Shown in pieces: positions 1 through 35,300 of a stretch of 64,000 nucleotides of DNA. Within the stretch, counting starts at the first letter, position 1, and each line of letters starts with the position of its first letter. Source of the stretch: Balanoglossus misakiensis (lineage: Eukaryota; Animalia; Hemichordata); NCBI GenBank assembly GCA_040954595.2, contig CM082587.2:11773262-11837261 (forward strand), in the 5' to 3' direction. The position numbers and the translations under genes were made by a program. The notes under the pieces were generated by a model that saw only the letters and a list, made by a program, of their open reading frames with translations, was not told the DNA's origin and ran no database searches.

Positions 1-212
1 GCAAGCCGTCCTGCATCAATTATGAATTGTGTACATGCACTAAAGCGCCCTCACTGCTGGGTGTGTTGTATGGTCTTTAACCCTGTTTCAAATTAGAGTA
101 CTTTCTGCAATTTCAAGACAGATCTTACGTGCCATTGGAGAGCTCCATTGACTGGTCATTCATACTGTTTTCATTCATTCATTGCGGCATCAATATATTT
201 TATCTATTCTAG

Positions 213-359
213 CCAAAGAGCTTGGCACCTGTTGAAATGAACTCATCTGCTGTGGGCCAGTTTATTGGTGGCAGTTGAGCTGAGGAGAGCACCTTCCTTC
301 CCGGCACGCCACCAAGTAAAGTTCCACGCCGCCCACCACAGATGCCAGCATTCATTCAT
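213..359 (+). other. Exon-like 147-nt segment in module A (first copy; present in every monomer)
   Basis: Preceded by acceptor-like ttttatctattctAG (211-212) and followed by GCGAGT (360) and GTGAGT (364). The diverged copy has cat|GTGAGT at the equivalent position. All three plus frames contain a stop. Confidence 0.4.
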
Positions 360-392
360 GCGAGTGAGTGTAATTGCAAATTTGCCTATTCT

Positions 393-577
393 AGATCTGT
401 AATGGAAATGGAGAAAGTACCTTATATTTTCTGTAAAATAGACATTTAATTGGCAAGCCGTCCTGCATCAATTATGAATTGTGTACATGCACTAAAGCGC
501 CCTCACTGCTGGGTGTGTTGTATGGTCTTTAACCCTGTTTCAAATTAGAGTACTTTCTGCAATTTCAAGACAGATCT
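393..577. mobile_element. Module B: MITE-like 179-bp element with imperfect TIRs (first full copy; present in every 452-bp monomer)
   Basis: Left end tctgtaatggaaatggagaaagtac (396-420) vs reverse complement of right end (550-574) tctgtcttgaaattgcagaaagtac: 20/25 match. Palindromic AGATCT at both ends (393-398, 572-577). Absent as a whole unit from short monomers. Confidence 0.8.
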
Positions 578-3500
578 TACGTGCCATTGGAGAGCTCCAT
601 TGACTGGTCATTCATACTGTTTTCATTCATTCATTGCGGCATCAATATATTTTATCTATTCTAGCCAAAGAGCTTGGCACCTGTTGAAATGAACTCATCT
701 GCTCTGGGCCAGTTTATTGGTGGCAGTTGAGCTGAGGAGAGCACCTTCCTTCCCGGCACGCCACCAAGTAAAGTTCCACGCCGCCCACCACAGATGCCAG
801 CATTCATTCATGCGAGTGAGTGTAATTGCAAATTTGCCTATTCTAGATCTGTAATGGAAATGGAGAAAGTACCTTATATTTTCTGTAAAATAGACATTTA
901 ATTGGCAAGCCGTCCTGCATCAATTATGAATTGTGTACATGCACTAAAGCGCCCTCACTGCTGGGTGTGTTGTATGGTCTTTAACCCTGTTTCAAATTAG
1001 AGTACTTTCTGCAATTTCAAGACAGATCTTACGTGCCATTGGAGAGCTCCATTGACTGGTCATTCATACTGTTTTCATTCATTCATTGCGGCATCAATAT
1101 ATTTTATCTATTCTAGCCAAAGAGCTTGGCACCTGTTGAAATGAACTCATCTGCTGTGGGCCAGTTTATTGGTGGCAGTTGAGCTGAGAAGAGCACCTTC
1201 CTTCCCGGCACGCCACCAAGTAAAGTTCCACGCCGCCCACCACAGATGCCAGCATTCATTCATGCGAGTGAGTGTAATTGCAAATTTGCCTATTCTAGAA
1301 TCTTACGTGCCATTGGAGAGCTCCATTGACTGGTCATTCATACTGTTTTCATTCATTCATTGCGGCATCAATATATTTTATCTATTCTAGCCAAAGAGCT
1401 TGGCACCTGTTGAAATGAACTCATCTGCTGTGGGCCAGTTTATTGGTGGCAGTTGAGCTGAGGAGAGCACCTTCCTTCCCGGGACGCCACCAAGTAAAGT
1501 TCCACGCCGCCCACCACAGATGCCAGCATTCATTCATGCGAGTGAGTGTAATTGCAAATTTGCCTATTCTAGATTCTTACGTGCCATTGGAGAGCTCCAT
1601 TGACTGGTCATTCATACTGTTTTCATTCATTCATTGCGGCATCAATATATTTTATCTATTCTAGCCAAAGAGCTTGGCACCTGTTGAAATGAACTCATCT
1701 GCTGTGGGCCAGTTTATTGGTGGCAGTTGAGCTGAGGAGAGCACCTTCCTTCCCGGCACGCCACCAAGTAAAGTTCCACGCCGCCCACCACAGATGCCAG
1801 CATTCATTCATGCGAGTGAGTGTAATTGCAAATTTGCCTATTCTAGATCTGTAATGGAAATGGAGAAAGTACCTTATATTTTCTGTAAAATAGACATTTA
1901 ATTGGCAAGCCGTCCTGCATCAATTATTAATTGTGTACATGCACTAAAGCGCCCTCACTGCTGGGTGTGTTGTATGGTCTTTAACCCTGTTTCAAATTAG
2001 AGTACTTTCTGCAATTTCAAGACAGATCTTACGTGCCATTGGAGAGCTCCATTGACTGGTCATTCATACTGTTTTCATTCATTCATTGCGGCATCAATAT
2101 ATTTTATCTATTCTAGCCAAAGAGCTTGGCACCTGTTGAAATGAACTCATCTGCTGTGGGCCAGTTTATTGGTGGCAGTTGAGCTGAGGAGAGCACCTTC
2201 CTTCCCGGCACGCCACCAAGTAAAGTTCCACGCCGCCCACCACAGATGCCAGCATTCATTCATGCGAGTGAGTGTAATTGCAAATTTGCCTATTCTAGAA
2301 TTACGTGCCATTGGAGAGCTCCATTGACTGGTCATTCATACTGTTTTCATTCATTCATTGCGGCATCAATATATTTTATCTATTCTAGCCAAAGAGCTTG
2401 GCACCTGTTGAAATGAACTCATCTGCTGTGGGCCAGTTTATTGGTGGCAGTTGAGCTGAGGAGAGCACCTTCCTTCCCGGCACGCCACCAAGTAAAGTTC
2501 CACGCCGCCCACCACAGATGCCAGCATTCATTCATGCGAGTGAGTGTAATTGCAAATTTGCCTATTCTAGATCTGTAATGGAAATGGAGAAAGTACCTTA
2601 TATTTTCTGTAAAATAGACATTTAATTGGCAAGCCGTCCTGCATCAATTATGAATTGTGTACATGCACTAAAGCGCCCTCACTGCTGGGTGTGTTGTATG
2701 GTCTTTAACCCTGTTTCAAATTAGAGTACTTTCTGCAATTTCAAGACAGATCTTACGTGCCATTGGAGAGCTCCATTGACTGGTCATTCATACTGTTTTC
2801 ATTCATTCATTGCGGCATCAATATATTTTATCTATTCTAGCCAAAGAGCTTGGCACCTGTTGAAATGAACTCATCTGCTGTGGGCCAGTTTATTGGTGGC
2901 AGTTGAGCTGAGGAGAGCACCTTCCTTCCCGGCACGCCACCAAGTAAAGTTCCACGCCGCCCACCACAGATGCCAGCATTCATTCATGCGAGTGAGTGTA
3001 ATTGCAAATTTGCCTATTCTAGATCTGTAATGGAAATGGAGAAAGTACCTTATATTTTCTGTAAAATAGACATTTAATTGGCAAGCCGTCCTGCATCAAT
3101 TATGAATTGTGTACATGCACTAAAGCGCCCTCACTGCTGGGTGTGTTGTATGGTCTTTAACCCTGTTTCAAATTAGAGTACTTTCTGCAATTTCAAGACA
3201 GATCTTACGTGCCATTGGAGAGCTCCATTGACTGGTCATTCATACTGTTTTCATTCATTCATTTCGGCATCAATATATTTTATCTATTCTAGCCAAAGAG
3301 CTTGGCACCTGTTGAAATGAACTCATCTGCTGTGGGCCAGTTTATTGGTGGCAGTTGAGCTGAGAAGAGCACCTTCCTTCCCGGCACGCCACCAAGTAAA
3401 GTTCCACGCCGCCCACCACAGATGCCAGCATTCATTCATGCGAGTGAGTGTAATTGCAAATTTGCCTATTCTAGAATCTTACGTGCCATTGGAGAGCTCC

Positions 3501-6500: not shown

Positions 6501-9500
6501 GATGCCAGCATTCATTCATGCGAGTGAGTGTAATTGCAAATTTGCCTATTCTAGATCTGTAATGGAAATGGAGAAAGTACCTTATATTTTCTGTAAAATA
6601 GACATTTAATTGGCAAGCCGTCCTGCATCAATTATGAATTGTGTACATGCACTAAAGCGCCCTCACTGCTGGGTGTGTTGTATGGTCTTTAACCCTGTTT
6701 CAAATTAGAGTACTTTCTGCAATTTCAAGACAGATCTTACGTGCCATTGGAGAGCTCCATTGACTGGTCATTCATACTGTTTTCATTCATTCATTGCGGC
6801 ATCAATATATTTTATCTATTCTAGCCAAAGAGCTTGGCACCTGTTGAAATGAACTCATCTGCTGTGGGCCAGTTTATTGGTGGCAGTTGAGCTGAGGAGA
6901 GCACCTTCCTTCCCGGCACGCCACCAAGTAAAGTTCCACGCCGCCCACCACAGATGCCAGCATTCATTCATGCGAGTGAGTGTAATTGCAAATTTGCCTA
7001 TTCTAGATCTGTAATGGAAATGGAGAAAGTACCTTATATTTTCTGTAAAATAGACATTTAATTGGCAAGCCGTCCTGCATCAATTATGAATTGTGTACAT
7101 GCACTAAAGCGCCCTCACTGCTGGGTGTGTTGTATGGTCTTTAACCCTGTTTCAAATTAGAGTACTTTCTGCAATTTCAAGACAGATCTTACGTGCCATT
7201 GGAGAGCTCCATTGACTGGTCATTCATACTGTTTTCATTCATTCATTGCGGCATCAATATATTTTATCTATTCTAGCCAAAGAGCTTGGCACCTGTTGAA
7301 ATGAACTCATCTGCTGTGGGCCAGTTTATTGGTGGCAGTTGAGCTGAGAAGAGCACCTTCCTTCCCGGCACGCCACCAAGTAAAGTTCCACGCCGCCCAC
7401 CACAGATGCCAGCATTCATTCATGCGAGTGAGTGTAATTGCAAATTTGCCTATTCTAGAATCTTACGTGCCATTGGAGAGCTCCATTGACTGGTCATTCA
7501 TACTGTTTTCATTCATTCATTGCGGCATCAATATATTTTATCTATTCTAGCCAAAGAGCTTGGCACCTGTTGAAATGAACTCATCTGCTGTGGGCCAGTT
7601 TATTGGTGGCAGTTGAGCTGAGGAGAGCACCTTCCTTCCCGGGACGCCACCAAGTAAAGTTCCACGCCGCCCACCACAGATGCCAGCATTCATTCATGCG
7701 AGTGAGTGTAATTGCAAATTTGCCTATTCTAGATTCTTACGTGCCATTGGAGAGCTCCATTGACTGGTCATTCATACTGTTTTCATTCATTCATTGCGGC
7801 ATCAATATATTTTATCTATTCTAGCCAAAGAGCTTGGCACCTGTTGAAATGAACTCATCTGCTGTGGGCCAGTTTATTGGTGGCAGTTGAGCTGAGGAGA
7901 GCACCTTCCTTCCCGGCACGCCACCAAGTAAAGTTCCACGCCGCCCACCACAGATGCCAGCATTCATTCATGCGAGTGAGTGTAATTGCAAATTTGCCTA
8001 TTCTAGATCTGTAATGGAAATGGAGAAAGTACCTTATATTTTCTGTAAAATAGACATTTAATTGGCAAGCCGTCCTGCATCAATTATGAATTGTGTACAT
8101 GCACTAAAGCGCCCTCACTGCTGGGTGTGTTGTATGGTCTTTAACCCTGTTTCAAATTAGAGTACTTTCTGCAATTTCAAGACAGATCTTACGTGCCATT
8201 GGAGAGCTCCATTGACTGGTCATTCATACTGTTTTCATTCATTCATTGCGGCATCAATATATTTTATCTATTCTAGCCAAAGAGCTTGGCACCTGTTGAA
8301 ATGAACTCATCTGCTGTGGGCCAGTTTATTGGTGGCAGTTGAGCTGAGGAGAGCACCTTCCTTCCCGGCACGCCACCAAGTAAAGTTCCACGCCGCCCAC
8401 CACAGATGCCAGCATTCATTCATGCGAGTGAGTGTAATTGCAAATTTGCCTATTCTAGATCTGTAATGGAAATGGAGAAAGTACCTTATATTTTCTGTAA
8501 AATAGACATTTAATTGGCAAGCCGTCCTGCATCAATTATGAATTGTGTACATGCACTAAAGCGCCCTCACTGCTGGGTGTGTTGTATGGTCTTTAACCCT
8601 GTTTCAAATTAGAGTACTTTCTGCAATTTCAAGACAGATCTTACGTGCCATTGGAGAGCTCCATTGACTGGTCATTCATACTGTTTTCATTCATTCATTG
8701 CGGCATCAATATATTTTATGTATTCTAGCCAAAGAGCTTGGCACCTGTTGAAATGAACTCATCTGCTGTGGGCCAGTTTATTGGTGGCAGTTGAGCTGAG
8801 GAGAGCACCTTCCTTCCCGGCACGCCACCAAGTAAAGTTCCACGCCGCCCACCACAGATGCCAGCATTCATTCATGCGAGTGAGTGTAATTGCAAATTTG
8901 CCTATTCTAGATCTGTAATGGAAATGGAGAAAGTACCTTATATTTTCTGTAAAATAGACATTTAATTGGCAAGCCGTCCTGCATCAATTATTAATTGTGT
9001 ACATGCACTAAAGCGCCCTCACTGCTGGGTGTGTTGTATGGTCTTTAACCCTGTTTCAAATTAGAGTACTTTCTGCAATTTCAAGACAGATCTTACGTGC
9101 CATTGGAGAGCTCCATTGACTGGTCATTCATACTGTTTTCATTCATTCATTGCGGCATCAATATATTTTATCTATTCTAGCCAAAGAGCTTGGCACCTGT
9201 TGAAATGAACTCATCTGCTGTGGGCCAGTTTATTGGTGGCAGTTGAGTTGAGGAGAGCACCTTCCTTCCCGGCACGCCACCAAGTAAAGTTCCACGCCGC
9301 CCACCACAGATGCCAGCATTCATTCATGCGAGTGAGTGTAATTGCAAATTTGCCTATTCTAGAATTCTTACGTGCCATTGGAGAGCTCCATTGACTGGTC
9401 ATTCATACTGTTTTCATTCATTCATTGCGGCATCAATATATTTTATGTATTCTAGCCAAAGAGCTTGGCACCTGTTGAAATGAACTCATCTGCTGTGGGC

Positions 9501-18155: not shown

Positions 18156-19959
18156 AGTAAAGTTCCACGTGCATTCCTGGCCCTGGTTTTATTTATGTTT
18201 ACAGACAATATTGCATTTTTGTACAAGTATTTTAATCAACTATAAATTTTGAATGTGTCATTTACCTGAACCGGTCATGTTGACCAGAATGATACATTTC
18301 TGCCTTCACTCACCCTATAAATATGTGATTGAGACATAGGTCATTTGCATAAGCTAACATACCAGAAAGTAAGCATATCTGTTGTTTTCCCTGTGTCACT
18401 GCCATCAAAGTAAAAATTAGACGTTGTGTAGAGCAAACTCCAATTTTTTGTTCTCAATAAACATGGATGAATTACATAGAATGTGTTTGTTGTTTACAGT
18501 CTTTAAATGACACATTAGATTATGCACTTTACAAAACGTTTCTGAGAAACAAGTGACTAACTAGTTTCTTTCCACTGTGGCCAACGTGGTTCACTGTTTG
18601 TGTCAGAATCTCTCTGTTTTGCAAGGATTTTGAAATCATAGTGGTGACATGCATAGTGAAAATCAGCTACTTTCAAATGTCCGTCATGTTCATGCTGTAA
18701 TTGAATTTTCAAAGCTGGGCTGGCGTGTTTTTTCTTATTTACATAAGTATCACACTTTATACATGTATCTTCATGGGGTTTTTTGAGTCCCGTATTTAGG
18801 TCCTCTCTCACAATTTTACGAAATATCGTATAACTGACAGTTGTTCTTCCCAGAAGAGATTGGTTGGTTATGAACTCTCGGTGTAACTGCGATATACTGT
18901 GGTCCGGCGCCAGGTACGGTTTAAATCGAGGATTCCTGCAGTAGTGAGATTCTACAATTCTGTGCCTGCGTACGTGTTCAGTGATATCAGTCAGCAAATT
19001 TGGATTGAGTTTCCGACGATGCCCTTTGTGTCGGCCCCTTGCATCTGGCATCAGACCAGTAAAGTTCCATGTGCATTCCTGGCCCTGGTTTTATTTATGT
19101 TTACAGACAATATTGCATTTTTGTACAAGTATTTTAATCAACTATAAATTTTGAATGTGTCATTTACCTGAACCGGTCATGTTGACCAGAATGATACATT
19201 TCTGCCTTCACTCACCCTATAAATATGTGATTGAGACATAGGTCATTTGCATAAGCTAACATACCAGAAAGTAAGCATATCTGTTGTTTTCCCTGTGTCA
19301 CTGCCATCAAAGTAAAAATTAGACGTTGTGTAGAGCAAACTCCAATTTTTTGTTCTCAATAAACATGGATGAATTACATAGAATGTGTTTGTTGTTTACA
19401 GTCTTTAAATGACACATTAGATTATGCACTTTACAAAACGTTTCTGAGAAACAAGTGACTAACTAGTTTCTTTCCACTGTGGCCAACGTGGTTCACTGTT
19501 TGTGTCAGAATCTCTCTGTTTTGCAAGGATTTTGAAATCATAGTGGTGACATGCATAGTGAAAATCAGCTACTTTCAAATGTCCGTCATGTTCATGCTGT
19601 AATTGAATTTTCAAAGCTGGGCTGGCGTGTTTTTTCTTATTTACATAAGTATCACACTTTATACATGTATCTTCATGGGGTTTTCTGAGTCCCGTATTTA
19701 GGTCCTCTCTCACAATTTTACGAAATATCGTATAACTGACAGTTGTTCTTCCCAGAAGAGATTGGTTGGTTATGAACTCTCGGTGTAACTGCGATATACT
19801 GTGGTCCGGCGCCAGGTACGGTTTAAATCGAGGATTCCTGCAGTAGTGAGATTCTACAATTCTGTGCCTGCGTACGTGTTCAGTGATATCAGTCAGCAAA
19901 TTTGGATTGAGTTTCCGACGATGCCCTTTGTGTCGGCCCCTTGCATCTGGCATCAGACC
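18156..19959. repeat. 902-bp direct tandem duplication (18156-19057 / 19058-19959)
   Basis: Same sequence at offset 902, with agt microhomology at the junction. Two substitutions noticed: c18168/t19070 and a K/R codon change. Confidence 0.95.
18557..19051 (-). pseudogene. 5'-truncated duplicate of the transposase N-half gene (164 aa, open from an internal Met)
   Basis: Identical to the last 164 aa of the 19459-20415 protein except one R/K change. Lies in the 902-bp duplication. Confidence 0.75.
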
Positions 19960-20415
19960 AGTTGAACAGTGCATCATTTTGCTTAGAACGGTTCTAGTCC
20001 GCCTCTCACTAATGCCAAATAATTTCAGGAATGCATTTTTGCAGACAGTAACCGTTTCACCGCCTTCATTCACCAGGTGATAACGAACCGATTTCTTGTG
20101 TGACTTCATCTGTATATCCATCAGTTTGTAGAGCATCAAGTTCTGTTCATTATACACGCGACCATCAAAATATTTTCTCGTGGTGCCTAAAACATGCGTA
20201 CTCCCAAGCTTCCGCAGACAATTCCCTTGAACGCAGGCGCATTCCAAGGAAAGACTGTCAATATCTGGAAAAGGGCGATTTTTCCTTGGTTTTTGTCTCG
20301 GACACGTCTTTTTAGAATTCCTACGTGGCTTGTTGGCTCGAGCTGACAGTTCGGTTCTGCGTTGCTGCCACACAGGAATGGGTTCCCACGCATAAGCAAC
20401 TCCCCGGCAGGCCAT
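19459..20415 (-). CDS. N-terminal half of Sola1-like transposase (DNA-binding/Zn region), 318 aa
   Basis: First ATG at 20415. Motifs CACVQGNC, VTVCKNAFLKLFGISERR, DARGRH, ESHYCR..YL, SYTIFRKIV..N.GL.KPHEDTCIKCD, H..HL..A are typical of the region preceding the catalytic core in this family. Confidence 0.8.
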   Translation of the reverse strand: MACRGVAYAWEPIPVWQQRRTELSARANKPRRNSKKTCPRQKPRKNRPFPDIDSLSLECACVQGNCLRKLGSTHVLGTTRKYFDGRVYNEQNLMLYKLMDIQMKSHKKSVRYHLVNEGGETVTVCKNAFLKLFGISERRTRTVLSKMMHCSTGLMPDARGRHKGHRRKLNPNLLTDITEHVRRHRIVESHYCRNPRFKPYLAPDHSISQLHREFITNQSLLGRTTVSYTIFRKIVREDLNTGLRKPHEDTCIKCDTYVNKKKHASPALKIQLQHEHDGHLKVADFHYACHHYDFKILAKQRDSDTNSEPRWPQWKETS

Positions 20416-20586
20416 GGTCACAGCTGAAGTATTTGTTCAAGTACTGACTGACTAAACGCGGCATGGAACAAACGAACGAACGAACGAACGACTTCACGTT
20501 CGGAAAAAAAATCGTTGCGAGCTGTTGGGTGCCTCTATAGTTGTCGGCAACCGTTCTTTTTTATTGCTAAACAATGCTGTCAGAGC
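20416..20586. promoter_or_regulatory. Putative 171-bp bidirectional promoter between the two transposase halves
   Basis: Head-to-head ATGs at 20415(-) and 20587(+). Contains short (ACTG)n and (AACG)5 repeats. Function inferred from position only. Confidence 0.5.
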
Positions 20587-21600
20587 ATGGAAGGTGTGGT
20601 GGAAAACGAACAGAGGTTTTGTACGACCAACGATTGGATGGTGCTACATATGGACTTCCACAAGTCATTGCCGGTTCCTAAACTCAGCTCTGAAGACTTT
20701 TACTTTAAATCGAAATTGCAAATGAAGCTCCTTGGAATTTACAACGGGACAACGGAAAAGATGCATTGTTATGTATGGACAGAGCTCGATAGCAGAAAGT
20801 CTCCCGATGAAGTTATTACCTGTCTAAATCACTTTTTTTATAACTCGGGTGTGACCAGCAGACATGCAGTTATTTACAGCGACAACTGCCGTGCCGAATT
20901 CAAGTGTGGGAAGTTAATGTTTTACTATGACTATCTGTTACGAAAGGGCGTGTTTCGACGAATTGACTATAAAACTCTTGTGGCTGGACACACGTACTCC
21001 ACCTGTGACCGAGTTTTTGCGTCCATTGAAAGGCATGCAAGTCGTTTCCAGAGTATAGAGACACCTCACGATTGGACATCTGTGATTCGAGGATCTTCTC
21101 TGAATGGGAACATTGGAGTTACGGAGATGACTCACAGAGACTTTTTCAATTATTCTGATTTCCTGAAAAATGAGTACGTTGTGCGTTATGCAGATACAAA
21201 CAATGTAACTTTTTACTACCAAGCCATGCACTATTTTAATTTTGGAGAAGGAGAAAGGCTTGATACCGACGGCAACCTCAGAACATTTAGTCATGCAGAT
21301 AAAGTTTGGGTGAGAACATCTCTAGATCCAAGCGAGACCCCGATTGTAGTCGACTTTAGAAAGAAGAAGCAGAACCGGCGTTTACAAGATTGTACGCTGA
21401 ACAAACTTTATCAGGAACGTCGACCACTGGCGAGCAAAGTTTGGCGGGATCTTCAGAGTTTAGCCAAAAATTACCTGTCTCCGGAGGCAATAGAATTTTA
21501 TAGGAATCTACCGCTTCAGGAGAGTAGTGGCACCTCTGCAGACCCGTACGCCTTTCATGATGATGACGACGACGATGATGATGATATGGGCGGTGGTTGA
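20587..21600 (+). CDS. Catalytic (RNase H-fold DDD) half of Sola1-like transposase, 337 aa, acidic tail
   Basis: MDFHKSLPVP...FYFKSKL...CYVWTE...EVITCL...YSDNC...KTLVAGHTYSTCDRVFASIE: three candidate catalytic Asp intact. First ATG at 20587. ATTAAA at 21701. Confidence 0.87.
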   Translation: MEGVVENEQRFCTTNDWMVLHMDFHKSLPVPKLSSEDFYFKSKLQMKLLGIYNGTTEKMHCYVWTELDSRKSPDEVITCLNHFFYNSGVTSRHAVIYSDNCRAEFKCGKLMFYYDYLLRKGVFRRIDYKTLVAGHTYSTCDRVFASIERHASRFQSIETPHDWTSVIRGSSLNGNIGVTEMTHRDFFNYSDFLKNEYVVRYADTNNVTFYYQAMHYFNFGEGERLDTDGNLRTFSHADKVWVRTSLDPSETPIVVDFRKKKQNRRLQDCTLNKLYQERRPLASKVWRDLQSLAKNYLSPEAIEFYRNLPLQESSGTSADPYAFHDDDDDDDDDMGGG

Positions 21601-21918
21601 ACAAACTGTCCTTTTCATGACGACAGTGATTTTGGATATTTGATGTGCGTGCACAGTTTATATGTAATATTTTCACACGAACGAGTTTTGACTGAATTTG
21701 ATTAAAGAATGTACTCGATAATTAACAAATGTGCTGAATCGTGGTTATTATGTTGTTAATTTTTGTTTGTTTGTTTGTTTGTTTGTAAACAATTTCCGTT
21801 CATTCAACTGGCTACAAAGTTGGATTTTTGTACTGGGAAGCGATAAACTCGCACATCAAAACCGGGGAGACTCGATCATTTTTCCCTGCAGGTAGCCTGA
21901 AAAGCACCCGGGCAGAGA

Positions 21919-21991
21919 TTACGTCATATATGGTCCACTTTAATACGAAATTATGCAAATGTGACATTTCACGGAAACGGCGTATATAAAA
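21919..21991 (+). promoter_or_regulatory. Pol II promoter-like cluster upstream of wHTH-SET gene
   Basis: CRE-like TTACGTCA 21919-21926, octamer ATGCAAAT 21953-21960, TATATAAAA 21983-21991, about 90 bp before ATG 22084. Confidence 0.55.
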
Positions 21992-22083
21992 GCGACCCTG
22001 GGCTATTGTTCGGAATGCGTCATCGACGAGAGAGTGACTGATAATTCTTCTACCTCGAGTCAACCATTCTGTATATACTGAAC

Positions 22084-23410
22084 ATGGCTAGCTGGCGCAG
22101 GAAGAGACAAGGCAATGTGCGGTCTGTAATCAACGAACGGCACCGCTCAGTTCAGTGTCCCTTTCTTCAAAAGTGGATCGGTGAGCAATTGGTATTTTCA
22201 GGTCGTTCAGAGGATGAAGTCCAGTCCAGTACTGTATTTGAGAGCTACAAATGTTGGGTTGAAAACTATTCGTCGGCGGACAATCAAGTAATGATTATGG
22301 TTACTAAAGCTCGATTTTTCAAGGTGAGAATGATCGCATTTTTCTTCCCCCCCCCCCTCCCTCCCCCAAGGGACTCGTTTTCTGTCTCTTTTAAACCTGT
22401 AACTTAACGAAAAGGAAGTTTTTCACATATCTCTTTGTTGACACTATAGCAATTTGGAGCGCGGATGCTTCAAGAGAATAGCGTTACCAAATCAAAGTCG
22501 GCCGGGGTTAATATTTATAGAGGTGTTCGTCTGAAAGCTGGTTCGCGAAGAATCTCAACGGGGAAACCTGAGCACAGTGTACTTCAGACCAGGGCAAGGG
22601 CATTTCTTGATGACGCCAGCGTGACCGTTCCGATCGAGGTAAGAATGGTGTTTTGTTTGGACTAGGACAATAGAACGTTGCAATGAGTGTGTCAATGGGT
22701 GTCCAAGTGCAAACGTGGTCGGCTTCTGTCCACAAATGCCATTAATTTTAGGCAGGATTTATAAAATTGTCAATGAAGAATACAAAAATGAAAAACAATA
22801 GTTAATAGCAAACGGGTAGGATTGCAAGGGCTTGTAAAACGGTACACACTGTACCAGGAAGTTTGCAACACTAATGAAGAATGTATATGATATATTTAGG
22901 TGAGAACTGTTCGCGATCGCCGGGACGCAGGACGGTGCGCGTTTTCGACGAGGGATCTTCAAGCCTGGAACGTCGTCTGCGAATACCGGGGCACGGTTAT
23001 TAGCGTTGAAGAAGCTAGTCGGCGTGATGAACTTTACAGGGCAGAGGGGAAACGACCACGCATGTTTCATCTCTACATTGGAAAGAGACACGTTGTGTGA
23101 GTGTATCACTTAGTCGAATATATGGTCATATATTGCAAAGCATCTGTCGAAATAGAAAACGTAATATTGTCTATATTTTCCTCATTAACGCAGCATTGAC
23201 GGATACGATGTCCCAGCCGGTGAAGAAAATTTAGCGGGCCTAATAAATCACAGTCAGCAGAACGCCAACTTGGTACCGGTTCGGATCGGAGAGCGCCTGG
23301 TTTTCTTTGCAACCAGGAATCTTTGTCAGGGAGTAGAGCTTTTGTATGATTACGGTGACGGGGGTGAAGAGGATTTCTTCAGTGGTTCTCAAACTTTTCC
23401 TGAAAATTAA
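22084..23410 (+). CDS. 4-exon gene: D5/RFX-like winged helix fused to SET8/PR-Set7(KMT5A)-like SET domain, ~280 aa
   Basis: Exons 22084-22323, 22450-22638, 22900-23096, 23194-23410 joined by GT-AG introns (phases 0, 0, 2) give one open frame. SET motifs AGRCAFSTRDL..VVCEYRG, IDG, LAGLINHS..N, FATRNL..GVELLYDYGD. N-terminus FLQKWI..VQSSTVFESYKCW..KARFFKQFG..NIYRGVRLK resembles a wHTH. Confidence 0.88.
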
Positions 23411-24319
23411 GGCATTAACACATCAACGCTTCGGGATGTCGTAACGGCGGCAAGGCGGGGGGGGGGGGGGGGGGGGCGTGAAAATGTTTGTATCAGGAAC
23501 AAAATTCCCGTGCAAATCACCTTGATCCGGGTGGGTGGACTATTCGCGACAAATGTTGGAAATCATACAAAGCATTTTACTTAATTAACCCATTTTTTTC
23601 ATTTATTTGTTTACAGTTTACAACGTCATAGAGAAGTTGAACTAGAGACTGGATCAGCGTGGGTGACACCATAGTACACCAATGTTTTCTTCAGTTTGAT
23701 TCAATTGTAATTTAAAACTGAGATTGCCTAACGCTTTCCCAGATTTTTTTAACCACTGAGAAACTGTGGGTTTTTTTCTGGGTTTTGGTGCGAGGTGATC
23801 TCAGTCAGTGGTGTTAATTTAATTAATCATTTTCTTTTCCTATTTACGTCGACTGAAATGTATTTTGATAGGTGATAGTCATACCATAAAAAAATCTTAC
23901 GGCGCGACTGCCAAAATGTACATTTATTTGTCCGTTCCAAGTTATTTTGTGTATGTGTGATGGGTGCCGGTGACTGTGCAGGGTTGATTTCCCTAGAGCG
24001 ACTGTTATATTCGTTTTCCAACGATGATGAATTTACATGTTATTTGCTTGGCATTTTGACGCAGAGACACTTCTGAAAACACAAACCTATTAATTATGCC
24101 ACGGGTGTAAATTGATCACATTAAAAGAGGCTTTAGACGTTTGCCGCGAGCTCCTGGTGGGCAGAATCTTGTCAGCCCAAATTTGACTATAAGTACATAG
24201 CCAATGATGTGACGCTCTCCCACATCCTTCGCCGCGCCTTTTCGCTGATTTACAGCATCTTGCGTAAACACTGTCATTTGATCTTGCTTGGCAGAAGTCA
24301 ACTTGCTCTATACTACATT

Positions 24320-24685
24320 ATGGCGGCCAAGCTCAACTGCATATCAGATAATGCCAAGGAGCGTTTGAGAGGCATCCTCGCCAGAAGGAGTCGCGTTTCC
24401 GGTGACTGTGTGCTCTGGACGGGTGCAGCTTGTCGAAACGGCTATGGCTCTATTACGTTCAGAGATGAGAACACTCTAACCGCCTATGTCCATCACATTG
24501 CACTCCTAATTAACGGAGTGCAATTGGTGGGCAGGCGGTTAGAGTGTTCTCATCTTTGCAACGAAAAGCTATGCATCCGCCCAGAGCACATTGTCCAGGA
24601 AACGCGACTCCTAAACATTTCACGAAAGACGTGCTTTAAATCCCCAAAAGGGGAGTGTCACCACGATCCCAGGTGCCTAAGGTGA
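24320..24685 (+). CDS. His-Me finger endonuclease (zinc-binding loop homing endonuclease, I-PpoI-like), 121 aa
   Basis: CVLWTGA..NGYGSI...YVHH...ECSHLCNEKLCIRPEHIVQET..LNISRKTC...CHHDPRC. First ATG at 24320. The stop overlaps a strong donor AAG|GTGAGT, so the 3' end may be spliced. Confidence 0.88.
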   Translation: MAAKLNCISDNAKERLRGILARRSRVSGDCVLWTGAACRNGYGSITFRDENTLTAYVHHIALLINGVQLVGRRLECSHLCNEKLCIRPEHIVQETRLLNISRKTCFKSPKGECHHDPRCLR

Positions 24686-25598
24686 GTAATCCTCTTCTCA
24701 TTTGATATGTATTGTGTGACCCTGCAGTTGAAACGCTTTCATCAATAATTTGCGGCGCGTGGGTAATCTCGGTGTTATTGACAATGCAGCCGGCCCAAAC
24801 ATTTTTAAATTAACACTGTTTCTGACTGTATTAACGAAATGTCCAATTTGCAAGTAGCCTATAGACAACCCTTTTGAATGAGTTTTGTCTCGTTGAGATT
24901 TTATACATAAGGAACAATCTAGATTTATTTTAGAAGACACTGTTCTTTTAAAACAGCTAGCATAATACAGCTAAATTTCGGAATTTCCGGACAATTTTCG
25001 GAATTCCTTTTAAATTTGAGAAATTTTTCATCAGATATAAGTGTTACTATTTATTGGACATGTTTTTATCATTGTTTACTTTTTAAGGTCATTCTCATCC
25101 CCCCCCCCCCCCCCAAAAAAAAGCCGCTTTAGGCTTCATGTTCAGTAAAAAATCTGGAAAGTTCAGCTGAATTTTACACTGATCACACATTTTTGGGAAG
25201 GTCTGGCGCAAAATAAAGGATGACAAATGTAAATCTAATGTCACATTTGTAAACCTCTAAGTATTGTACACTCATTCTATTAAGTATATGCAAATAGTAC
25301 GGATAATTTTTTCGGAATGTGGAATTCCGAAATTAGTTCGGAACGTGTTAGCAGTGAAGAGATCACCACTGAGGGTTGGAAGGCCTTGCCAGAAATTAAC
25401 GCGTAAAGTACGCCCTCACAGGCCATGTAAACAAGGTCAAATAAGGCCGTCTGGCAAACGAATGATTAATTCAACGCGCCATTTGAGCCGAGCTGAGTTG
25501 GTCTGAGTTGCGTATCACACAGACTTAGGCTGAATGTCAGTGGAGTAACCAGTCCGTTTTAGATTTACCAATGATGTGAATTTAATTTCTTCACCCAG

Positions 25599-26000
25599 AA
25601 AAACAGAACACAACTTGTCTGCAACATGATGCTGGAGGTGACACATGACAGAGAAGTGGATCCGCGTTGTCAACACAGATGCCAGCATTCAAAAGGGGAG
25701 TGCCACCTGCTAAAATCAACTCATCTGCTGTTGGCCCATTTTACCTGTGGCAACTGTTCAGAGGAGACAACGTTTATTCCGTGCAAGCCAACACGCAATG
25801 TTGGGGTCTACCTGTCAACACAGATGCAAGCATTCATGTGAGTGAGTATCAGGACTGACCTTGTTTTGCTGAATAATTCATAATGCCTATTTTAGAATTC
25901 TTAGAGGCATTTGGAGTTCATTGCCTGGTCAACCAAACTACACCCCTTAACAGCTGAAACAAAATGCGTATTGTGTTCATTCATTCATTGCTTCAATATA
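25599..26000 (+). repeat. Diverged copy of satellite module A inside the cassette
   Basis: Blocks acagatgccagcattca, aactcatctgctgt, agcattcatgtgagtgagt, tgcctattttagaattctta, ctggtca and ttcattcattcattgc occur in monomer order. Internal direct repeat tgtcaacacagatgc at 25668 and 25813. Confidence 0.85.
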
Positions 26001-26316
26001 TATAGGCAACATGAGTATCAAGTAGCACTATTTGTTTACGATTGTATTCATGAAAACTTCCCACTAACAATTCCACAGTTAATATTGAACACATTTATCC
26101 AACAAGGTCAAAAGAAAAAGGGAATCTTCTGGTTCCAAAATACGCCACAAATGTGGGTCAACATACAGTGAAATATTATGGTGCTCAAATATGCAACATA
26201 TCAAATCTGTCTCATCAAAGTCATGCTTTAAAAAAGAATTGAAAAGGTATTATTTATCCATTTGACTGCTGTATTTTCAGAAGGAAAACAAACTGAATTT
26301 GGTTTTTCATGTACAA

Positions 26317-29300
26317 ATATTTTCTGTAAAATAGACATTTAATTGGCAAGCCGTCCTGCATCAATTATTAATTGTGTACATGCACTAAAGCGCCCTCACT
26401 GCTGGGTGTGTTGTATGGTCTTTAACCCTGTTTCAAATTAGAGTACTTTCTGCAATTTCAAGACAGATCTTACGTGCCATTGGAGAGCTCCATTGACTGG
26501 TCATTCATACTGTTTTCATTCATTCATTGCGGCATCAATATATTTTATGTATTCTAGCCAAAGAGCTTGGCACCTGTTGAAATGAACTCATCTGCTGTGG
26601 GCCAGTTTATTGGTGGCAGTTGAGCTGAGGAGAGCACCTTCCTTCCCGGCACGCCACCAAGTAAAGTTCCACGCCGCCCACCACAGATGCCAGCATTCAT
26701 TCATGCGAGTGAGTGTAATTGCAAATTTGCCTATTCTAGATCTGTAATGGAAATGGAGAAAGTACCTTATATTTTCTGTAAAATAGACATTTAATTGGCA
26801 AGCCGTCCTGCATCAATTATTAATTGTGTACATGCACTAAAGCGCCCTCACTGCTGGGTGTGTTGTATGGTCTTTAACCCTGTTTCAAATTAGAGTACTT
26901 TCTGCAATTTCAAGACAGATCTTACGTGCCATTGGAGAGCTCCATTGACTGGTCATTCATACTGTTTTCATTCATTCATTGCGGCATCAATATATTTTAT
27001 CTATTCTAGCCAAAGAGCTTGGCACCTGTTGAAATGAACTCATCTGCTGTGGGCCAGTTTATTGGTGGCAGTTGAGCTGAGGAGAGCACCTTCCTTCCCG
27101 GCACGCCACCAAGTAAAGTTCCACGCCGCCCACCACAGATGCCAGCATTCATTCATGCGAGTGAGTGTAATTGCAAATTTGCCTATTCTAGAATTACGTG
27201 CCATTGGAGAGCTCCATTGACTGGTCATTCATACTGTTTTCATTCATTCATTGCGGCATCAATATATTTTATCTATTCTAGCCAAAGAGCTTGGCACCTG
27301 TTGAAATGAACTCATCTGCTGTGGGCCAGTTTATTGGTGGCAGTTGAGCTGAGGAGAGCACCTTCCTTCCCGGCACGCCACCAAGTAAAGTTCCACGCCG
27401 CCCACCACAGATGCCAGCATTCATTCATGCGAGTGAGTGTAATTGCAAATTTGCCTATTCTAGATCTGTAATGGAAATGGAGAAAGTACCTTATATTTTC
27501 TGTAAAATAGACATTTAATTGGCAAGCCGTCCTGCATCAATTATGAATTGTGTACATGCACTAAAGCGCCCTCACTGCTGGGTGTGTTGTATGGTCTTTA
27601 ACCCTGTTTCAAATTAGAGTACTTTCTGCAATTTCAAGACAGATCTTACGTGCCATTGGAGAGCTCCATTGACTGGTCATTCATACTGTTTTCATTCATT
27701 CATTGCGGCATCAATATATTTTATCTATTCTAGCCAAAGAGCTTGGCACCTGTTGAAATGAACTCATCTGCTGTGGGCCAGTTTATTGGTGGCAGTTGAG
27801 CTGAGGAGAGCACCTTCCTTCCCGGCACGCCACCAAGTAAAGTTCCACGCCGCCCACCACAGATGCCAGCATTCATTCATGCGAGTGAGTGTAATTGCAA
27901 ATTTGCCTATTCTAGAATCTTACGTGCCATTGGAGAGCTCCATTGACTGGTCATTCATACTGTTTTCATTCATTCATTGCGGCATCAATATATTTTATCT
28001 ATTCTAGCCAAAGAGCTTGGCACCTGTTGAAATGAACTCATCTGCTGTGGGCCAGTTTATTGGTGGCAGTTGAGCTGAGGAGAGCACCTTCCTTCCCGGC
28101 ACGCCACCAAGTAAAGTTCCACGCCGCCCACCACAGATGCCAGCATTCATTCATGCGAGTGAGTGTAATTGCAAATTTGCCTATTCTAGATCTGTAATGG
28201 AAATGGAGAAAGTACCTTATATTTTCTGTAAAATAGACATTTAATTGGCAAGCCGTCCTGCATCAATTATTAATTGTGTACATGCACTAAAGCGCCCTCA
28301 CTGCTGGGTGTGTTGTATGGTCTTTAACCCTGTTTCAAATTAGAGTACTTTCTGCAATTTCAAGACAGATCTTACGTGCCATTGGAGAGCTCCATTGACT
28401 GGTCATTCATACTGTTTTCATTCATTCATTGCGGCATCAATATATTTTATCTATTCTAGCCAAAGAGCTTGGCACCTGTTGAAATGAACTCATCTGCTGT
28501 GGGCCAGTTTATTGGTGGCAGTTGAGCTGAGAAGAGCACCTTCCTTCCCGGCACGCCACCAAGTAAAGTTCCACGCCGCCCACCACAGATGCCAGCATTC
28601 ATTCATGCGAGTGAGTGTAATTGCAAATTTGCCTATTCTAGATCTGTAATGGAAATGGAGAAAGTACCTTATATTTTCTGTAAAATAGACATTTAATTGG
28701 CAAGCCGTCCTGCATCAATTATGAATTGTGTACATGCACTAAAGCGCCCTCACTGCTGGGTGTGTTGTATGGTCTTTAACCCTGTTTCAAATTAGAGTAC
28801 TTTCTGCAATTTCAAGACAGATCTTACGTGCCATTGGAGAGCTCCATTGACTGGTCATTCATACTGTTTTCATTCATTCATTGCGGCATCAATATATTTT
28901 ATCTATTCTAGCCAAAGAGCTTGGCACCTGTTGAAATGAACTCATCTGCTGTGGGCCAGTTTATTGGTGGCAGTTGAGCTGAGGAGAGCACCTTCCTTCC
29001 CGGCACGCCACCAAGTAAAGTTCCACGCCGCCCACCACAGATGCCAGCATTCATTCATGCGAGTGAGTGTAATTGCAAATTTGCCTATTCTAGATCTGTA
29101 ATGGAAATGGAGAAAGTACCTTATATTTTCTGTAAAATAGACATTTAATTGGCAAGCCGTCCTGCATCAATTATGAATTGTGTACATGCACTAAAGCGCC
29201 CTCACTGCTGGGTGTGTTGTATGGTCTTTAACCCTGTTTCAAATTAGAGTACTTTCTGCAATTTCAAGACAGATCTTACGTGCCATTGGAGAGCTCCATT

Positions 29301-32300
29301 GACTGGTCATTCATACTGTTTTCATTCATTCATTGCGGCATCAATATATTTTATCTATTCTAGCCAAAGAGCTTGGCACCTGTTGAAATGAACTCATCTG
29401 CTGTGGGCCAGTTTATTGGTGGCAGTTGAGCTGAGGAGAGCACCTTCCTTCCCGGCACGCCACCAAGTAAAGTTCCACGCCGCCCACCACAGATGCCAGC
29501 ATTCATTCATGCGAGTGAGTGTAATTGCAAATTTGCCTATTCTAGATCTGTAATGGAAATGGAGAAAGTACCTTATATTTTCTGTAAAATAGACATTTAA
29601 TTGGCAAGCCGTCCTGCATCAATTATGAATTGTGTACATGCACTAAAGCGCCCTCACTGCTGGGTGTGTTGTATGGTCTTTAACCCTGTTTCAAATTAGA
29701 GTACTTTCTGCAATTTCAAGACAGATCTTACGTGCCATTGGAGAGCTCCATTGACTGGTCATTCATACTGTTTTCATTCATTCATTGCGGCATCAATATA
29801 TTTTATCTATTCTAGCCAAAGAGCTTGGCACCTGTTGAAATGAACTCATCTGCTGTGGGCCAGTTTATTGGTGGCAGTTGAGCTGAGGAGAGCACCTTCC
29901 TTCCCGGCACGCCACCAAGTAAAGTTCCACGCCGCCCACCACAGATGCCAGCATTCATTCATGCGAGTGAGTGTAATTGCAAATTTGCCTATTCTAGATC
30001 TGTAATGGAAATGGAGAAAGTACCTTATATTTTCTGTAAAATAGACATTTAATTGGCAAGCCGTCCTGCATCAATTATGAATTGTGTACATGCACTAAAG
30101 CGCCCTCACTGCTGGGTGTGTTGTATGGTCTTTAACCCTGTTTCAAATTAGAGTACTTTCTGCAATTTCAAGACAGATCTTACGTGCCATTGGAGAGCTC
30201 CATTGACTGGTCATTCATACTGTTTTCATTCATTCATTGCGGCATCAATATATTTTATCTATTCTAGCCAAAGAGCTTGGCACCTGTTGAAATGAACTCA
30301 TCTGCTGTGGGCCAGTTTATTGGTGGCAGTTGAGCTGAGAAGAGCACCTTCCTTCCCGGCACGCCACCAAGTAAAGTTCCACGCCGCCCACCACAGATGC
30401 CAGCATTCATTCATGCGAGTGAGTGTAATTGCAAATTTGCCTATTCTAGAATCTTACGTGCCATTGGAGAGCTCCATTGACTGGTCATTCATACTGTTTT
30501 CATTCATTCATTGCGGCATCAATATATTTTATCTATTCTAGCCAAAGAGCTTGGCACCTGTTGAAATGAACTCATCTGCTGTGGGCCAGTTTATTGGTGG
30601 CAGTTGAGCTGAGGAGAGCACCTTCCTTCCCGGGACGCCACCAAGTAAAGTTCCACGCCGCCCACCACAGATGCCAGCATTCATTCATGCGAGTGAGTGT
30701 AATTGCAAATTTGCCTATTCTAGATTCTTACGTGCCATTGGAGAGCTCCATTGACTGGTCATTCATACTGTTTTCATTCATTCATTGCGGCATCAATATA
30801 TTTTATCTATTCTAGCCAAAGAGCTTGGCACCTGTTGAAATGAACTCATCTGCTGTGGGCCAGTTTATTGGTGGCAGTTGAGCTGAGGAGAGCACCTTCC
30901 TTCCCGGCACGCCACCAAGTAAAGTTCCACGCCGCCCACCACAGATGCCAGCATTCATTCATGCGAGTGAGTGTAATTGCAAATTTGCCTATTCTAGATC
31001 TGTAATGGAAATGGAGAAAGTACCTTATATTTTCTGTAAAATAGACATTTAATTGGCAAGCCGTCCTGCATCAATTATTAATTGTGTACATGCACTAAAG
31101 CGCCCTCACTGCTGGGTGTGTTGTATGGTCTTTAACCCTGTTTCAAATTAGAGTACTTTCTGCAATTTCAAGACAGATCTTACGTGCCATTGGAGAGCTC
31201 CATTGACTGGTCATTCATACTGTTTTCATTCATTCATTGCGGCATCAATATATTTTATCTATTCTAGCCAAAGAGCTTGGCACCTGTTGAAATGAACTCA
31301 TCTGCTGTGGGCCAGTTTATTGGTGGCAGTTGAGCTGAGGAGAGCACCTTCCTTCCCGGCACGCCACCAAGTAAAGTTCCACGCCGCCCACCACAGATGC
31401 CAGCATTCATTCATGCGAGTGAGTGTAATTGCAAATTTGCCTATTCTAGATCTGTAATGGAAATGGAGAAAGTACCTTATATTTTCTGTAAAATAGACAT
31501 TTAATTGGCAAGCCGTCCTGCATCAATTATTAATTGTGTACATGCACTAAAGCGCCCTCACTGCTGGGTGTGTTGTATGGTCTTTAACCCTGTTTCAAAT
31601 TAGAGTACTTTCTGCAATTTCAAGACAGATCTTACGTGCCATTGGAGAGCTCCATTGACTGGTCATTCATACTGTTTTCATTCATTCATTGCGGCATCAA
31701 TATATTTTATCTATTCTAGCCAAAGAGCTTGGCACCTGTTGAAATGAACTCATCTGCTGTGGGCCAGTTTATTGGTGGCAGTTGAGCTGAGGAGAGCACC
31801 TTCCTTCCCGGCACGCCACCAAGTAAAGTTCCACGCCGCCCACCACAGATGCCAGCATTCATTCATGCGAGTGAGTGTAATTGCAAATTTGCCTATTCTA
31901 GAATTACGTGCCATTGGAGAGCTCCATTGACTGGTCATTCATACTGTTTTCATTCATTCATTGCGGCATCAATATATTTTATCTATTCTAGCCAAAGAGC
32001 TTGGCACCTGTTGAAATGAACTCATCTGCTGTGGGCCAGTTTATTGGTGGCAGTTGAGCTGAGGAGAGCACCTTCCTTCCCGGCACGCCACCAAGTAAAG
32101 TTCCACGCCGCCCACCACAGATGCCAGCATTCATTCATGCGAGTGAGTGTAATTGCAAATTTGCCTATTCTAGATCTGTAATGGAAATGGAGAAAGTACC
32201 TTATATTTTCTGTAAAATAGACATTTAATTGGCAAGCCGTCCTGCATCAATTATGAATTGTGTACATGCACTAAAGCGCCCTCACTGCTGGGTGTGTTGT

Positions 32301-35300
32301 ATGGTCTTTAACCCTGTTTCAAATTAGAGTACTTTCTGCAATTTCAAGACAGATCTTACGTGCCATTGGAGAGCTCCATTGACTGGTCATTCATACTGTT
32401 TTCATTCATTCATTGCGGCATCAATATATTTTATCTATTCTAGCCAAAGAGCTTGGCACCTGTTGAAATGAACTCATCTGCTGTGGGCCAGTTTATTGGT
32501 GGCAGTTGAGCTGAGGAGAGCACCTTCCTTCCCGGCACGCCACCAAGTAAAGTTCCACGCCGCCCACCACAGATGCCAGCATTCATTCATGCGAGTGAGT
32601 GTAATTGCAAATTTGCCTATTCTAGAATCTTACGTGCCATTGGAGAGCTCCATTGACTGGTCATTCATACTGTTTTCATTCATTCATTGCGGCATCAATA
32701 TATTTTATCTATTCTAGCCAAAGAGCTTGGCACCTGTTGAAATGAACTCATCTGCTGTGGGCCAGTTTATTGGTGGCAGTTGAGCTGAGGAGAGCACCTT
32801 CCTTCCCGGCACGCCACCAAGTAAAGTTCCACGCCGCCCACCACAGATGCCAGCATTCATTCATGCGAGTGAGTGTAATTGCAAATTTGCCTATTCTAGA
32901 TCTGTAATGGAAATGGAGAAAGTACCTTATATTTTCTGTAAAATAGACATTTAATTGGCAAGCCGTCCTGCATCAATTATTAATTGTGTACATGCACTAA
33001 AGCGCCCTCACTGCTGGGTGTGTTGTATGGTCTTTAACCCTGTTTCAAATTAGAGTACTTTCTGCAATTTCAAGACAGATCTTACGTGCCATTGGAGAGC
33101 TCCATTGACTGGTCATTCATACTGTTTTCATTCATTCATTGCGGCATCAATATATTTTATCTATTCTAGCCAAAGAGCTTGGCACCTGTTGAAATGAACT
33201 CATCTGCTGTGGGCCAGTTTATTGGTGGCAGTTGAGCTGAGAAGAGCACCTTCCTTCCCGGCACGCCACCAAGTAAAGTTCCACGCCGCCCACCACAGAT
33301 GCCAGCATTCATTCATGCGAGTGAGTGTAATTGCAAATTTGCCTATTCTAGATCTGTAATGGAAATGGAGAAAGTACCTTATATTTTCTGTAAAATAGAC
33401 ATTTAATTGGCAAGCCGTCCTGCATCAATTATGAATTGTGTACATGCACTAAAGCGCCCTCACTGCTGGGTGTGTTGTATGGTCTTTAACCCTGTTTCAA
33501 ATTAGAGTACTTTCTGCAATTTCAAGACAGATCTTACGTGCCATTGGAGAGCTCCATTGACTGGTCATTCATACTGTTTTCATTCATTCATTGCGGCATC
33601 AATATATTTTATCTATTCTAGCCAAAGAGCTTGGCACCTGTTGAAATGAACTCATCTGCTGTGGGCCAGTTTATTGGTGGCAGTTGAGCTGAGGAGAGCA
33701 CCTTCCTTCCCGGCACGCCACCAAGTAAAGTTCCACGCCGCCCACCACAGATGCCAGCATTCATTCATGCGAGTGAGTGTAATTGCAAATTTGCCTATTC
33801 TAGATCTGTAATGGAAATGGAGAAAGTACCTTATATTTTCTGTAAAATAGACATTTAATTGGCAAGCCGTCCTGCATCAATTATGAATTGTGTACATGCA
33901 CTAAAGCGCCCTCACTGCTGGGTGTGTTGTATGGTCTTTAACCCTGTTTCAAATTAGAGTACTTTCTGCAATTTCAAGACAGATCTTACGTGCCATTGGA
34001 GAGCTCCATTGACTGGTCATTCATACTGTTTTCATTCATTCATTGCGGCATCAATATATTTTATCTATTCTAGCCAAAGAGCTTGGCACCTGTTGAAATG
34101 AACTCATCTGCTGTGGGCCAGTTTATTGGTGGCAGTTGAGCTGAGGAGAGCACCTTCCTTCCCGGCACGCCACCAAGTAAAGTTCCACGCCGCCCACCAC
34201 AGATGCCAGCATTCATTCATGCGAGTGAGTGTAATTGCAAATTTGCCTATTCTAGATCTGTAATGGAAATGGAGAAAGTACCTTATATTTTCTGTAAAAT
34301 AGACATTTAATTGGCAAGCCGTCCTGCATCAATTATGAATTGTGTACATGCACTAAAGCGCCCTCACTGCTGGGTGTGTTGTATGGTCTTTAACCCTGTT
34401 TCAAATTAGAGTACTTTCTGCAATTTCAAGACAGATCTTACGTGCCATTGGAGAGCTCCATTGACTGGTCATTCATACTGTTTTCATTCATTCATTGCGG
34501 CATCAATATATTTTATCTATTCTAGCCAAAGAGCTTGGCACCTGTTGAAATGAACTCATCTGCTGTGGGCCAGTTTATTGGTGGCAGTTGAGCTGAGGAG
34601 AGCACCTTCCTTCCCGGCACGCCACCAAGTAAAGTTCCACGCCGCCCACCACAGATGCCAGCATTCATTCATGCGAGTGAGTGTAATTGCAAATTTGCCT
34701 ATTCTAGATCTGTAATGGAAATGGAGAAAGTACCTTATATTTTCTGTAAAATAGACATTTAATTGGCAAGCCGTCCTGCATCAATTATGAATTGTGTACA
34801 TGCACTAAAGCGCCCTCACTGCTGGGTGTGTTGTATGGTCTTTAACCCTGTTTCAAATTAGAGTACTTTCTGCAATTTCAAGACAGATCTTACGTGCCAT
34901 TGGAGAGCTCCATTGACTGGTCATTCATACTGTTTTCATTCATTCATTGCGGCATCAATATATTTTATCTATTCTAGCCAAAGAGCTTGGCACCTGTTGA
35001 AATGAACTCATCTGCTGTGGGCCAGTTTATTGGTGGCAGTTGAGCTGAGAAGAGCACCTTCCTTCCCGGCACGCCACCAAGTAAAGTTCCACGCCGCCCA
35101 CCACAGATGCCAGCATTCATTCATGCGAGTGAGTGTAATTGCAAATTTGCCTATTCTAGAATCTTACGTGCCATTGGAGAGCTCCATTGACTGGTCATTC
35201 ATACTGTTTTCATTCATTCATTGCGGCATCAATATATTTTATCTATTCTAGCCAAAGAGCTTGGCACCTGTTGAAATGAACTCATCTGCTGTGGGCCAGT

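Follow-up and report, generated by a model that had tools for sequence, protein, structure and literature searches.

Links between MITEs and satellite DNA are already well represented in the accessible part of the literature, with MITEs or other non-autonomous TIR elements found in satellites of bivalves and a beetle. The module B analysed here, part of a satellite in a 64,000-nucleotide stretch of Balanoglossus misakiensis DNA (the window), resembles these cases as a short TIR element without coding capacity that has a target duplication and dispersed relatives and is carried in a tandem repeat, but differs from them, as far as their available text goes, in that B is located inside a host monomer and that filled and emptied monomers are found side by side with the scars amplified in higher-order repeats. 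In the accessible parts of the MITE-satellite papers among the matches listed, filled and emptied monomers next to each other with distinct amplified scars are not described, and 'excision footprints' are absent from the available text of the papers among those matches.

With respect to the scars, the closest described systems are those which form hairpins on the flanking DNA, as recorded for hAT, Transib, RAG and MULE enzymes (available part of PMC5499845). Published Ds footprints obey the same rule, with GGAA-Ds-CTCG giving rise to GGA-T-TCG and GGA-G-TCG (available part of PMC1978519). As in Ds, and in line with the hAT (Ac/Ds, Hermes), MULE, Transib and RAG systems in the accessible text of these two papers, the scars of B combine the complement of a flank base with microhomology. 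By analogy, B would act like the hairpin systems at the donor site, which does not imply membership, as the hAT target duplication comprises 5–8 bp in the accessible literature, whereas 2 bp fits B best.

Other families match in part. ISL2EU elements of the PHIS superfamily have a 2-bp AT duplication as in B, but insert into A/AT/T and start with GG, while B resides in G/AT/C or (AT)n and starts with CTG (accessible part of PMC4482050); the cassette ORFs tested gave no THAP or YqaJ match. For Sola1, the target duplication is the 4-bp AWWT (accessible part of PMC3845634), in contrast to the flanks AGAT and ATCT of B, which are not such a duplication. In KolobokP, a transposase of the DDD/E type and a His-Me nuclease are likewise situated among direct repeats of approximately 450 bp, with excisable TIR modules and multimers, and a His-Me nuclease next to a transposase is also present in the cassette that interrupts the array described here. 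On the other hand, the 450/660-bp KolobokP repeats are wholly TIR-bounded, with RR…YY ends and a clean internal join (accessible part of PMC9587614), whereas here the TIRs bound 177 of 452 bp, the ends are CT…AG and the cassette joints are located mid-A and mid-B.

The window consists of a satellite array interrupted at two places by the 8,147-bp cassette. The monomer period of 452 bp is made up of repeat A, the junction and B, while A without B measures 272–275 bp. At the 119 monomer junctions of the window, B is present 80 times and absent 39 times. The components of the filled monomer are:

126–391, plus strand: repeat A, the host repeat, 266 bp between anchors, with eight alleles one or two bases apart.
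397–573, unstranded: MITE B proper, CTG…CAG, 177 bp, with 80 complete copies in the window; probable boundaries, from the scar model and the (AT)n-flanked dispersed relatives.
397–420, plus strand: left TIR of B, 24 nt, matching the right TIR at 19/24 positions.
550–573, minus strand: right TIR of B, from the 24-nt TIR comparison with the left end.
395–396 and 574–575, unstranded: left and right copy of the presumed 2-bp target duplication AT, as read from the sequence.

The sequence-only reading had described module B (393–577, 185 nt) as MITE-like, with inverted ends matching at 20/25 positions, or at 23/28 with the outer AGA/TCT included. Both counts could be reproduced, the 20/25 with or without AGA/TCT, and are far beyond chance: among 200,000 terminal pairs drawn at random with the composition of B, none reached 23/28, and shuffling B 60 times gave at best 14–21 matches for 28-nt inverted stretches at any position. 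The same reading held that the array presents dozens of transposase end pairs, and 80 are indeed found in the window, the TIR matches (80 left, 83 right) all being located within the DNA of the array or else at the two cassette ends. The copies of B fall into two variants one base apart, B0 (55 copies) and B1 (25 copies). B is short with TIRs, possesses an AT target duplication (at the presumed boundary) and has dispersed copies at unrelated sites (in one sample); moreover, as appropriate for a MITE, no stop-to-stop frame of at least 100 amino acids exists in the array. The TIRs, the scar classes and the dispersed relatives back the assignment as a MITE-like module, and we conclude, on the support of the latter two, that B is a real MITE whose ends are used. 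The outer AGAT/ATCT is best explained as flank plus 2-bp AT duplication within a palindromic site, and not as part of the TIR. As to the array as a whole, a comparison of 17062–40725 with 39694–63357 displays nested higher-order repeats, in which filled and empty monomers form blocks that return in a constant order; one 22,632-bp higher-order unit includes the cassette. No Rfam match was obtained at E≤5 in 1–1700, with neither a hammerhead nor another RNA family detected in monomer and cassette, and among the at least five runs listed, four of which contain part of the cassette stretch, there was no RNA run.

The 39 B-less junctions fall into four classes, and a clean AGATCT join is found at none of them (0/39). 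Examples are:

1296–1303, plus strand: class AGA-A-TCT, 16/39, in two SNP and neighbour contexts.
1570–1577, plus strand: class AGA-T-TCT, 10/39, always (10/10) after A allele 180C>G.
2296–2301, plus strand: class AGA-A-TTACG, 12/39, always (12/12) between B1 and B0.
9360–9368, plus strand: class AGA-A-T-TCT, 1/39.

As three of the classes recur in fixed neighbour and SNP contexts, they would represent heritable, germline events. The class AGA-A-TCT occurs with allele 160G>A (n=11) and with the common allele (n=5), and these two contexts may reflect two origins. Allele 160G>A precedes B0-filled junctions (n=9) as well as the 11 AGA-A-TCT junctions, which is expected if empty monomers descend from filled ones. 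Cumulatively, the classes suggest at least four separate losses of B, three of which would later have been copied through higher-order repeats.

Four sequencing runs were compared over 200–660. X1 and X2 derive from one sample, which may be the source of the window, and thus provide other loci, not independent confirmation. X3 and X4, with nothing but low-depth array pieces, were left out of any reading of habitat or host. The AGA-A-TCT joint is present in all four runs, and in X2 all four scar classes appear as contig joints, together with one further 187-nt skip. GATC inserts at 393 and 572, GATC-GATC joints and loose ends in GATC, all restricted to X2, are likely fill-in and ligation products of a proximity-ligation library and were not counted as footprints.

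To account for the four classes, 12 cut models were compared, each pairing one of four readings of the boundary with a nick offset (0, 1 or 2) on the flank side. Permitted were hairpin-derived bases as well as trimming and microhomology of no more than 4 nt each, but no untemplated bases. Only one of the 12, with CTG…CAG ends, an AT duplication and an offset of 1, yields all four scar classes (three without trimming, one with 2 nt trimmed), which equals the one-base-offset flank-hairpin footprint of the hAT type; the other models yield at most two. The winning model permits a clean AGATCT join too, which was not seen in the window. The remaining boundary readings, TCTG…CAGA without duplication, TG…CA with a GATC duplication and GT…AC with a 6-bp AGATCT duplication, were rejected, each explaining at most two of the four classes.

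The proposed sequence of events starts with a single insertion of B into repeat A, after which B was likely amplified along with A as the 452-bp satellite. A transposase would nick one base into each flank and seal the flanks as hairpins, and on opening of the hairpins by host end-joining, the flank base that had been lost would be replaced by its complement (AGA-A, T-TCT), in many cases with 3 nt of microhomology. Excision from monomers is likely to have occurred in this way in the germline at least four times, with the scars subsequently copied along the array. Excision of a block of several monomers would leave scars identical to those of a single B. The cassette was presumably fitted in by non-homologous joints, at base 203 of A on one side and base 424 of B on the other, with a loss of 95 bp, and the 902-bp and 22.6-kb duplications would have followed cassette entry. 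The enzyme mobilising B is most likely encoded elsewhere in the genome. Taken as a whole, this account, in which B is a MITE with a family at other sites that was amplified within a satellite and lost by hairpin-type excision at least four times, with the cassette not its parent, is considered probable; the MITE part is held with greater confidence than the whole.

Dispersed copies of B with target duplications had been named by the sequence-only reading as a check. Diverged relatives of B with (AT)n or other flanks occur in contigs of X1 and X2, from the organism that matches the cassette best among the runs listed. Among the matches listed, two contigs of X1 and three of X2 start to match B at 395 directly after (AT)n, and one X1 contig ends its match at 575 before (AT)n, which fits CTG…CAG within AT. 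X1 record 7 and X2 record 15 align over 395–475 with five substitutions and five gap positions, and X2 record 14 over 394–474 with 11 substitutions; these dispersed relatives are approximately 12–14% diverged from B and their alignments cross position 424. In X1, 65 letters beyond 475 are still B-like (about 24/30 by eye), while X2 record 16 represents a diverged right end of B (452–575). Two flank motifs of the dispersed B-like contigs are absent from the window. The dispersed copies are represented by a few short contigs of one sample, with a loose-end agreement of 0.73–0.82, and none of the contigs listed covers a dispersed copy from one end to the other. Depths of B-like contigs of 107–1893 suggest several copies, not a copy number. 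One X2 contig departs from B after 440, continues with 67 unrelated letters that the window lacks and could be a longer relative of B. Independently of these contigs, a degenerate TIR pattern recovered eight loci in metagenome contigs, four of which align only over the TIR motif (24–38 nt) and none of which reaches the interior of B; these were discarded as chance matches.

The following features bear on the relationship of B to the cassette:

18170–26316, unstranded: cassette copy 1, 8,147 bp, left joint at A base 203, right joint at the equivalent of B position 424.
40802–48948, unstranded: cassette copy 2, a duplicate of copy 1 inside the 22,632-bp higher-order unit.
26317–26466, unstranded: left-truncated B at the right joint of the cassette, the last 150 bp, identical to B1; again at 48949–49098.
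18156–19959, unstranded: 902-bp tandem duplication at the left end of the cassette, including 14 bp of array A.
25687–26001, plus strand: A', a diverged homolog of A running across the B site with no B in it, with junction TTTTAGAATTCTTAG; 200 of 253 aligned columns identical.
26030–26260, plus strand: frameshifted LINE-like remnant, recognized by translation.

That the cassette runs into B at 26317 and 48949 and ends at the same A flank, as stated earlier, was reproduced: at the 424-equivalent, the comparison is gtacaa/ATATTTTCTG against gtacctt/ATATTTTCTG, followed by the same A flank, and GTAC is located shortly upstream of the joint in the cassette as it is in B. From these joints, a model had been developed in which the AT site took up a large element with B's ends, B arose from it there by internal deletion and was amplified with the satellite, and the cassette represents the left-truncated parent. 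This model accommodates that the cassette ends in the last 150 bp of B plus the same A flank and that it encodes an intact-looking transposase, and GTAC right before the joint in both sequences suits a deletion joint too. The derivation of B from the cassette is not upheld, since relatives with other flanks, approximately 12–14% diverged, already span position 424, the supposed deletion joint, so that the structure of B exists independently of the array site. Furthermore, the piece of B in the cassette is letter-identical to one array variant, B1, and unlike B0. The cassette has no left TIR: within its body no TIR with up to three mismatches is found, the best match of 16/24 being about chance by estimate. 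Across the cassette 95 bp of the monomer, the end of A plus the left TIR of B, are missing, and the model needs a second loss that removed these together with the left part of the parent. A' and the LINE-like remnant adjoin B, and the canonical Sola1 duplication is the 4-bp AWWT, unlike the flanks of B. The cassette is thus probably not the parent of B, a descent to which we assign a low probability; most likely, it joined the array through a break inside B. Had B been the terminus of the cassette, this would have tied the transposase to its ends, but B as terminus is not backed by the findings.

The 650 bp before B in the cassette consist of an old A-like repeat and the LINE-like remnant, and resemble old DNA rich in repeats or an old edge of the array rather than a subterminal region. 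The alignment of A' with A scores 165 compared with a shuffle maximum of 37. The remnant at 26030–26260 we take, judged by a motif, to be the C-terminal end of a CR1/L2-type LINE ORF2; it retrieved no Pfam match, no word-search match among longer proteins and only unnamed Atlas clusters. The A' region (25665–26001) has its own 145-bp internal repeat and is multi-copy by contig depth.

The two 8,147-bp cassette copies are two single-base indels apart, and their right flank is identical over 26317–40700; as they share their flanks in one 22,632-bp duplication, they go back to one event and not to transposition. The 902-bp duplication copies 14 bp of A and is therefore younger than the joint between array and cassette. 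The sequence-only reading further proposed that any upstream left TIR could pair with the right TIR of the cassette as in a composite transposon. Such pairing is geometrically possible, with a left TIR at 17786 and a right TIR ending at 26466 bracketing the cassette as cargo between mobile modules, but nothing in the window shows that it happened. The cassette starts at A base 203, 3' of the stop of the minus-strand transposase gene. On the strand of this gene, an AATAAA precedes the left joint of the cassette (18170–18200 and 19072–19100, minus strand) by approximately 18 nt, placing the joint near the expected transcript end, which may be chance. Related C- or G-run motifs are located at 22337–22367, 23457–23486 and 25090–25114, two of them being inverted relative to each other (88%) on either side of the nuclease gene at a distance of 1.6 kb, and the only differences between the cassette copies, one G and one C indel, occur at about such motifs. 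Protein-led scans for relatives of the cassette found no locus in viral or metagenome contigs.

The cassette carries the following genes:

19459–20415, minus strand: ORF of 318 aa when read from the ATG at 20415, with homology to DUF7869 transposases of the one-piece kind over their N-terminal half.
20587–21600, plus strand: catalytic ORF with an RNase H-like DDD domain, 337 aa; D23, D99, D141; Pfam DUF7869.
22084–23410, plus strand: probable intron-containing gene ending in a SET domain, with SET matches on two exon-like pieces and a presumed exon structure.
24320–24685, plus strand: His-Me finger (I-PpoI-like) endonuclease ORF, 121 aa, aligned to the I-PpoI motif.

The two transposase halves are intact ORFs arranged head to head on opposite strands, 171 bp apart, and the transposase appears to be naturally split into a DNA-binding and a catalytic half. 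Of 58 relatives with at least 480 aa (ranks 12–150), 53 are matched by the N-half in their N-terminal part. A word search with the N-half against 339 candidates comparable in length found no match. For the catalytic half, the 11 best relatives all measure 190–376 aa and none contains the N-half; several, a Saccoglossus gene model among them, begin at about the same position, although such short relatives could be exon fragments produced by gene callers. The nearest named relative of the cassette transposase is from Saccoglossus kowalevskii (47% identity). The gene at 22084–23410 presumably starts with a winged-helix-like region. Within the His-Me ORF, the I-PpoI motif is matched in alignment by SHLC, H and N residues; the ORF also contains a 26-nt inverted repeat of 96% (24460–24485/24533–24558).

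In the alignment, D99 and D141 are invariant and D23 is found in 11 of 12 rows, consistent with a DDD triad in an RNase H-like core. The structure model (pLDDT 84.9) resembles integrase and mariner cores, with best Z scores of 9.6 for integrases, 8.7 for Mos1 and 6.8 for Hermes, differences that are modest. D99 and D141 are spaced by only 42 residues, and the Hermes match spans residues 174–602. Flank-hairpin enzymes such as Hermes possess at this place a large insertion domain tied to the flank hairpins. A compact integrase-like core that lacks a large insertion would thus be a doubtful source of the scars of B, and, judged by the model, the cassette transposase is doubtful as mobiliser of B. 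Its motif pattern leads us to assume a Sola1 transposase. With Sola1 it shares the DDD triad, the RNase H-like fold and an N-half that matches one-piece relatives, in contrast to which the two ORFs here are located on opposite strands. A motif test for Sola1 is not contained in the accessible parts of PMC4455052, PMC5751038 and bioRxiv 10.1101/2021.09.26.461848. In the accessible literature, DUF7869 occurred in no paper, and the matches listed for 'split transposase' were three papers on bacterial genomics and an immunology preprint.

The His-Me nuclease and A' give rise to an alternative account of the empty junctions, namely that AGAATTCT is the ancestral, never-filled site and has been cut by a site-specific nuclease, for example the cassette His-Me protein, with deletions of 1–3 nt as a consequence. 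A' indeed carries exactly AGAATTCT, the rarest B-less class of the window, so that A' may be an old emptied copy or the AGAATTCT class may be the ancestral state and not a scar. The other three classes can be written as single short deletions (1–3 nt) of AGAATTCT, the cassette encodes the I-PpoI-like ORF, and KolobokP nucleases have been proposed to cut their own repeats (accessible part of PMC9587614). An AT-duplicating insertion into AGAATTCT predicts AGAAT-B-ATTCT, while AGAT-B-ATCT is observed, and allele 160G>A is common to filled and empty monomers. As the filled junction is impossible without a separate 2-bp loss, nuclease scarring is judged unlikely.

An equally unlikely proposal unites both activities in a self-editing array, in which the embedded split DDD transposase, with halves on opposite strands, would excise B or B-bounded blocks via flank hairpins in the germline, whereupon the His-Me nuclease would cut emptied AGAATTCT sites and neighbour-templated repair would restore B and alter the array length. 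Transposase-free loss of B by ordinary recombination or slippage between flanking direct repeats, for which AGATCT is available on both sides of B and recombination in satellites is known to be frequent, predicts a clean AGATCT, found at none of the 39 B-less junctions of the window and absent among the joints listed for the four runs, and is accordingly very improbable.

If excision of a MITE through flank hairpins is the right explanation for the empty junctions, the array constitutes a natural excision assay, with several independent germline footprints of one transposon in one sequence context. These footprints would point to hairpin chemistry for a family which, with its CTG ends and AT duplication, matches no superfamily among those compared. 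In this case, transposase breaks would directly create length variants of the satellite monomer and may drive the turnover of higher-order repeats.
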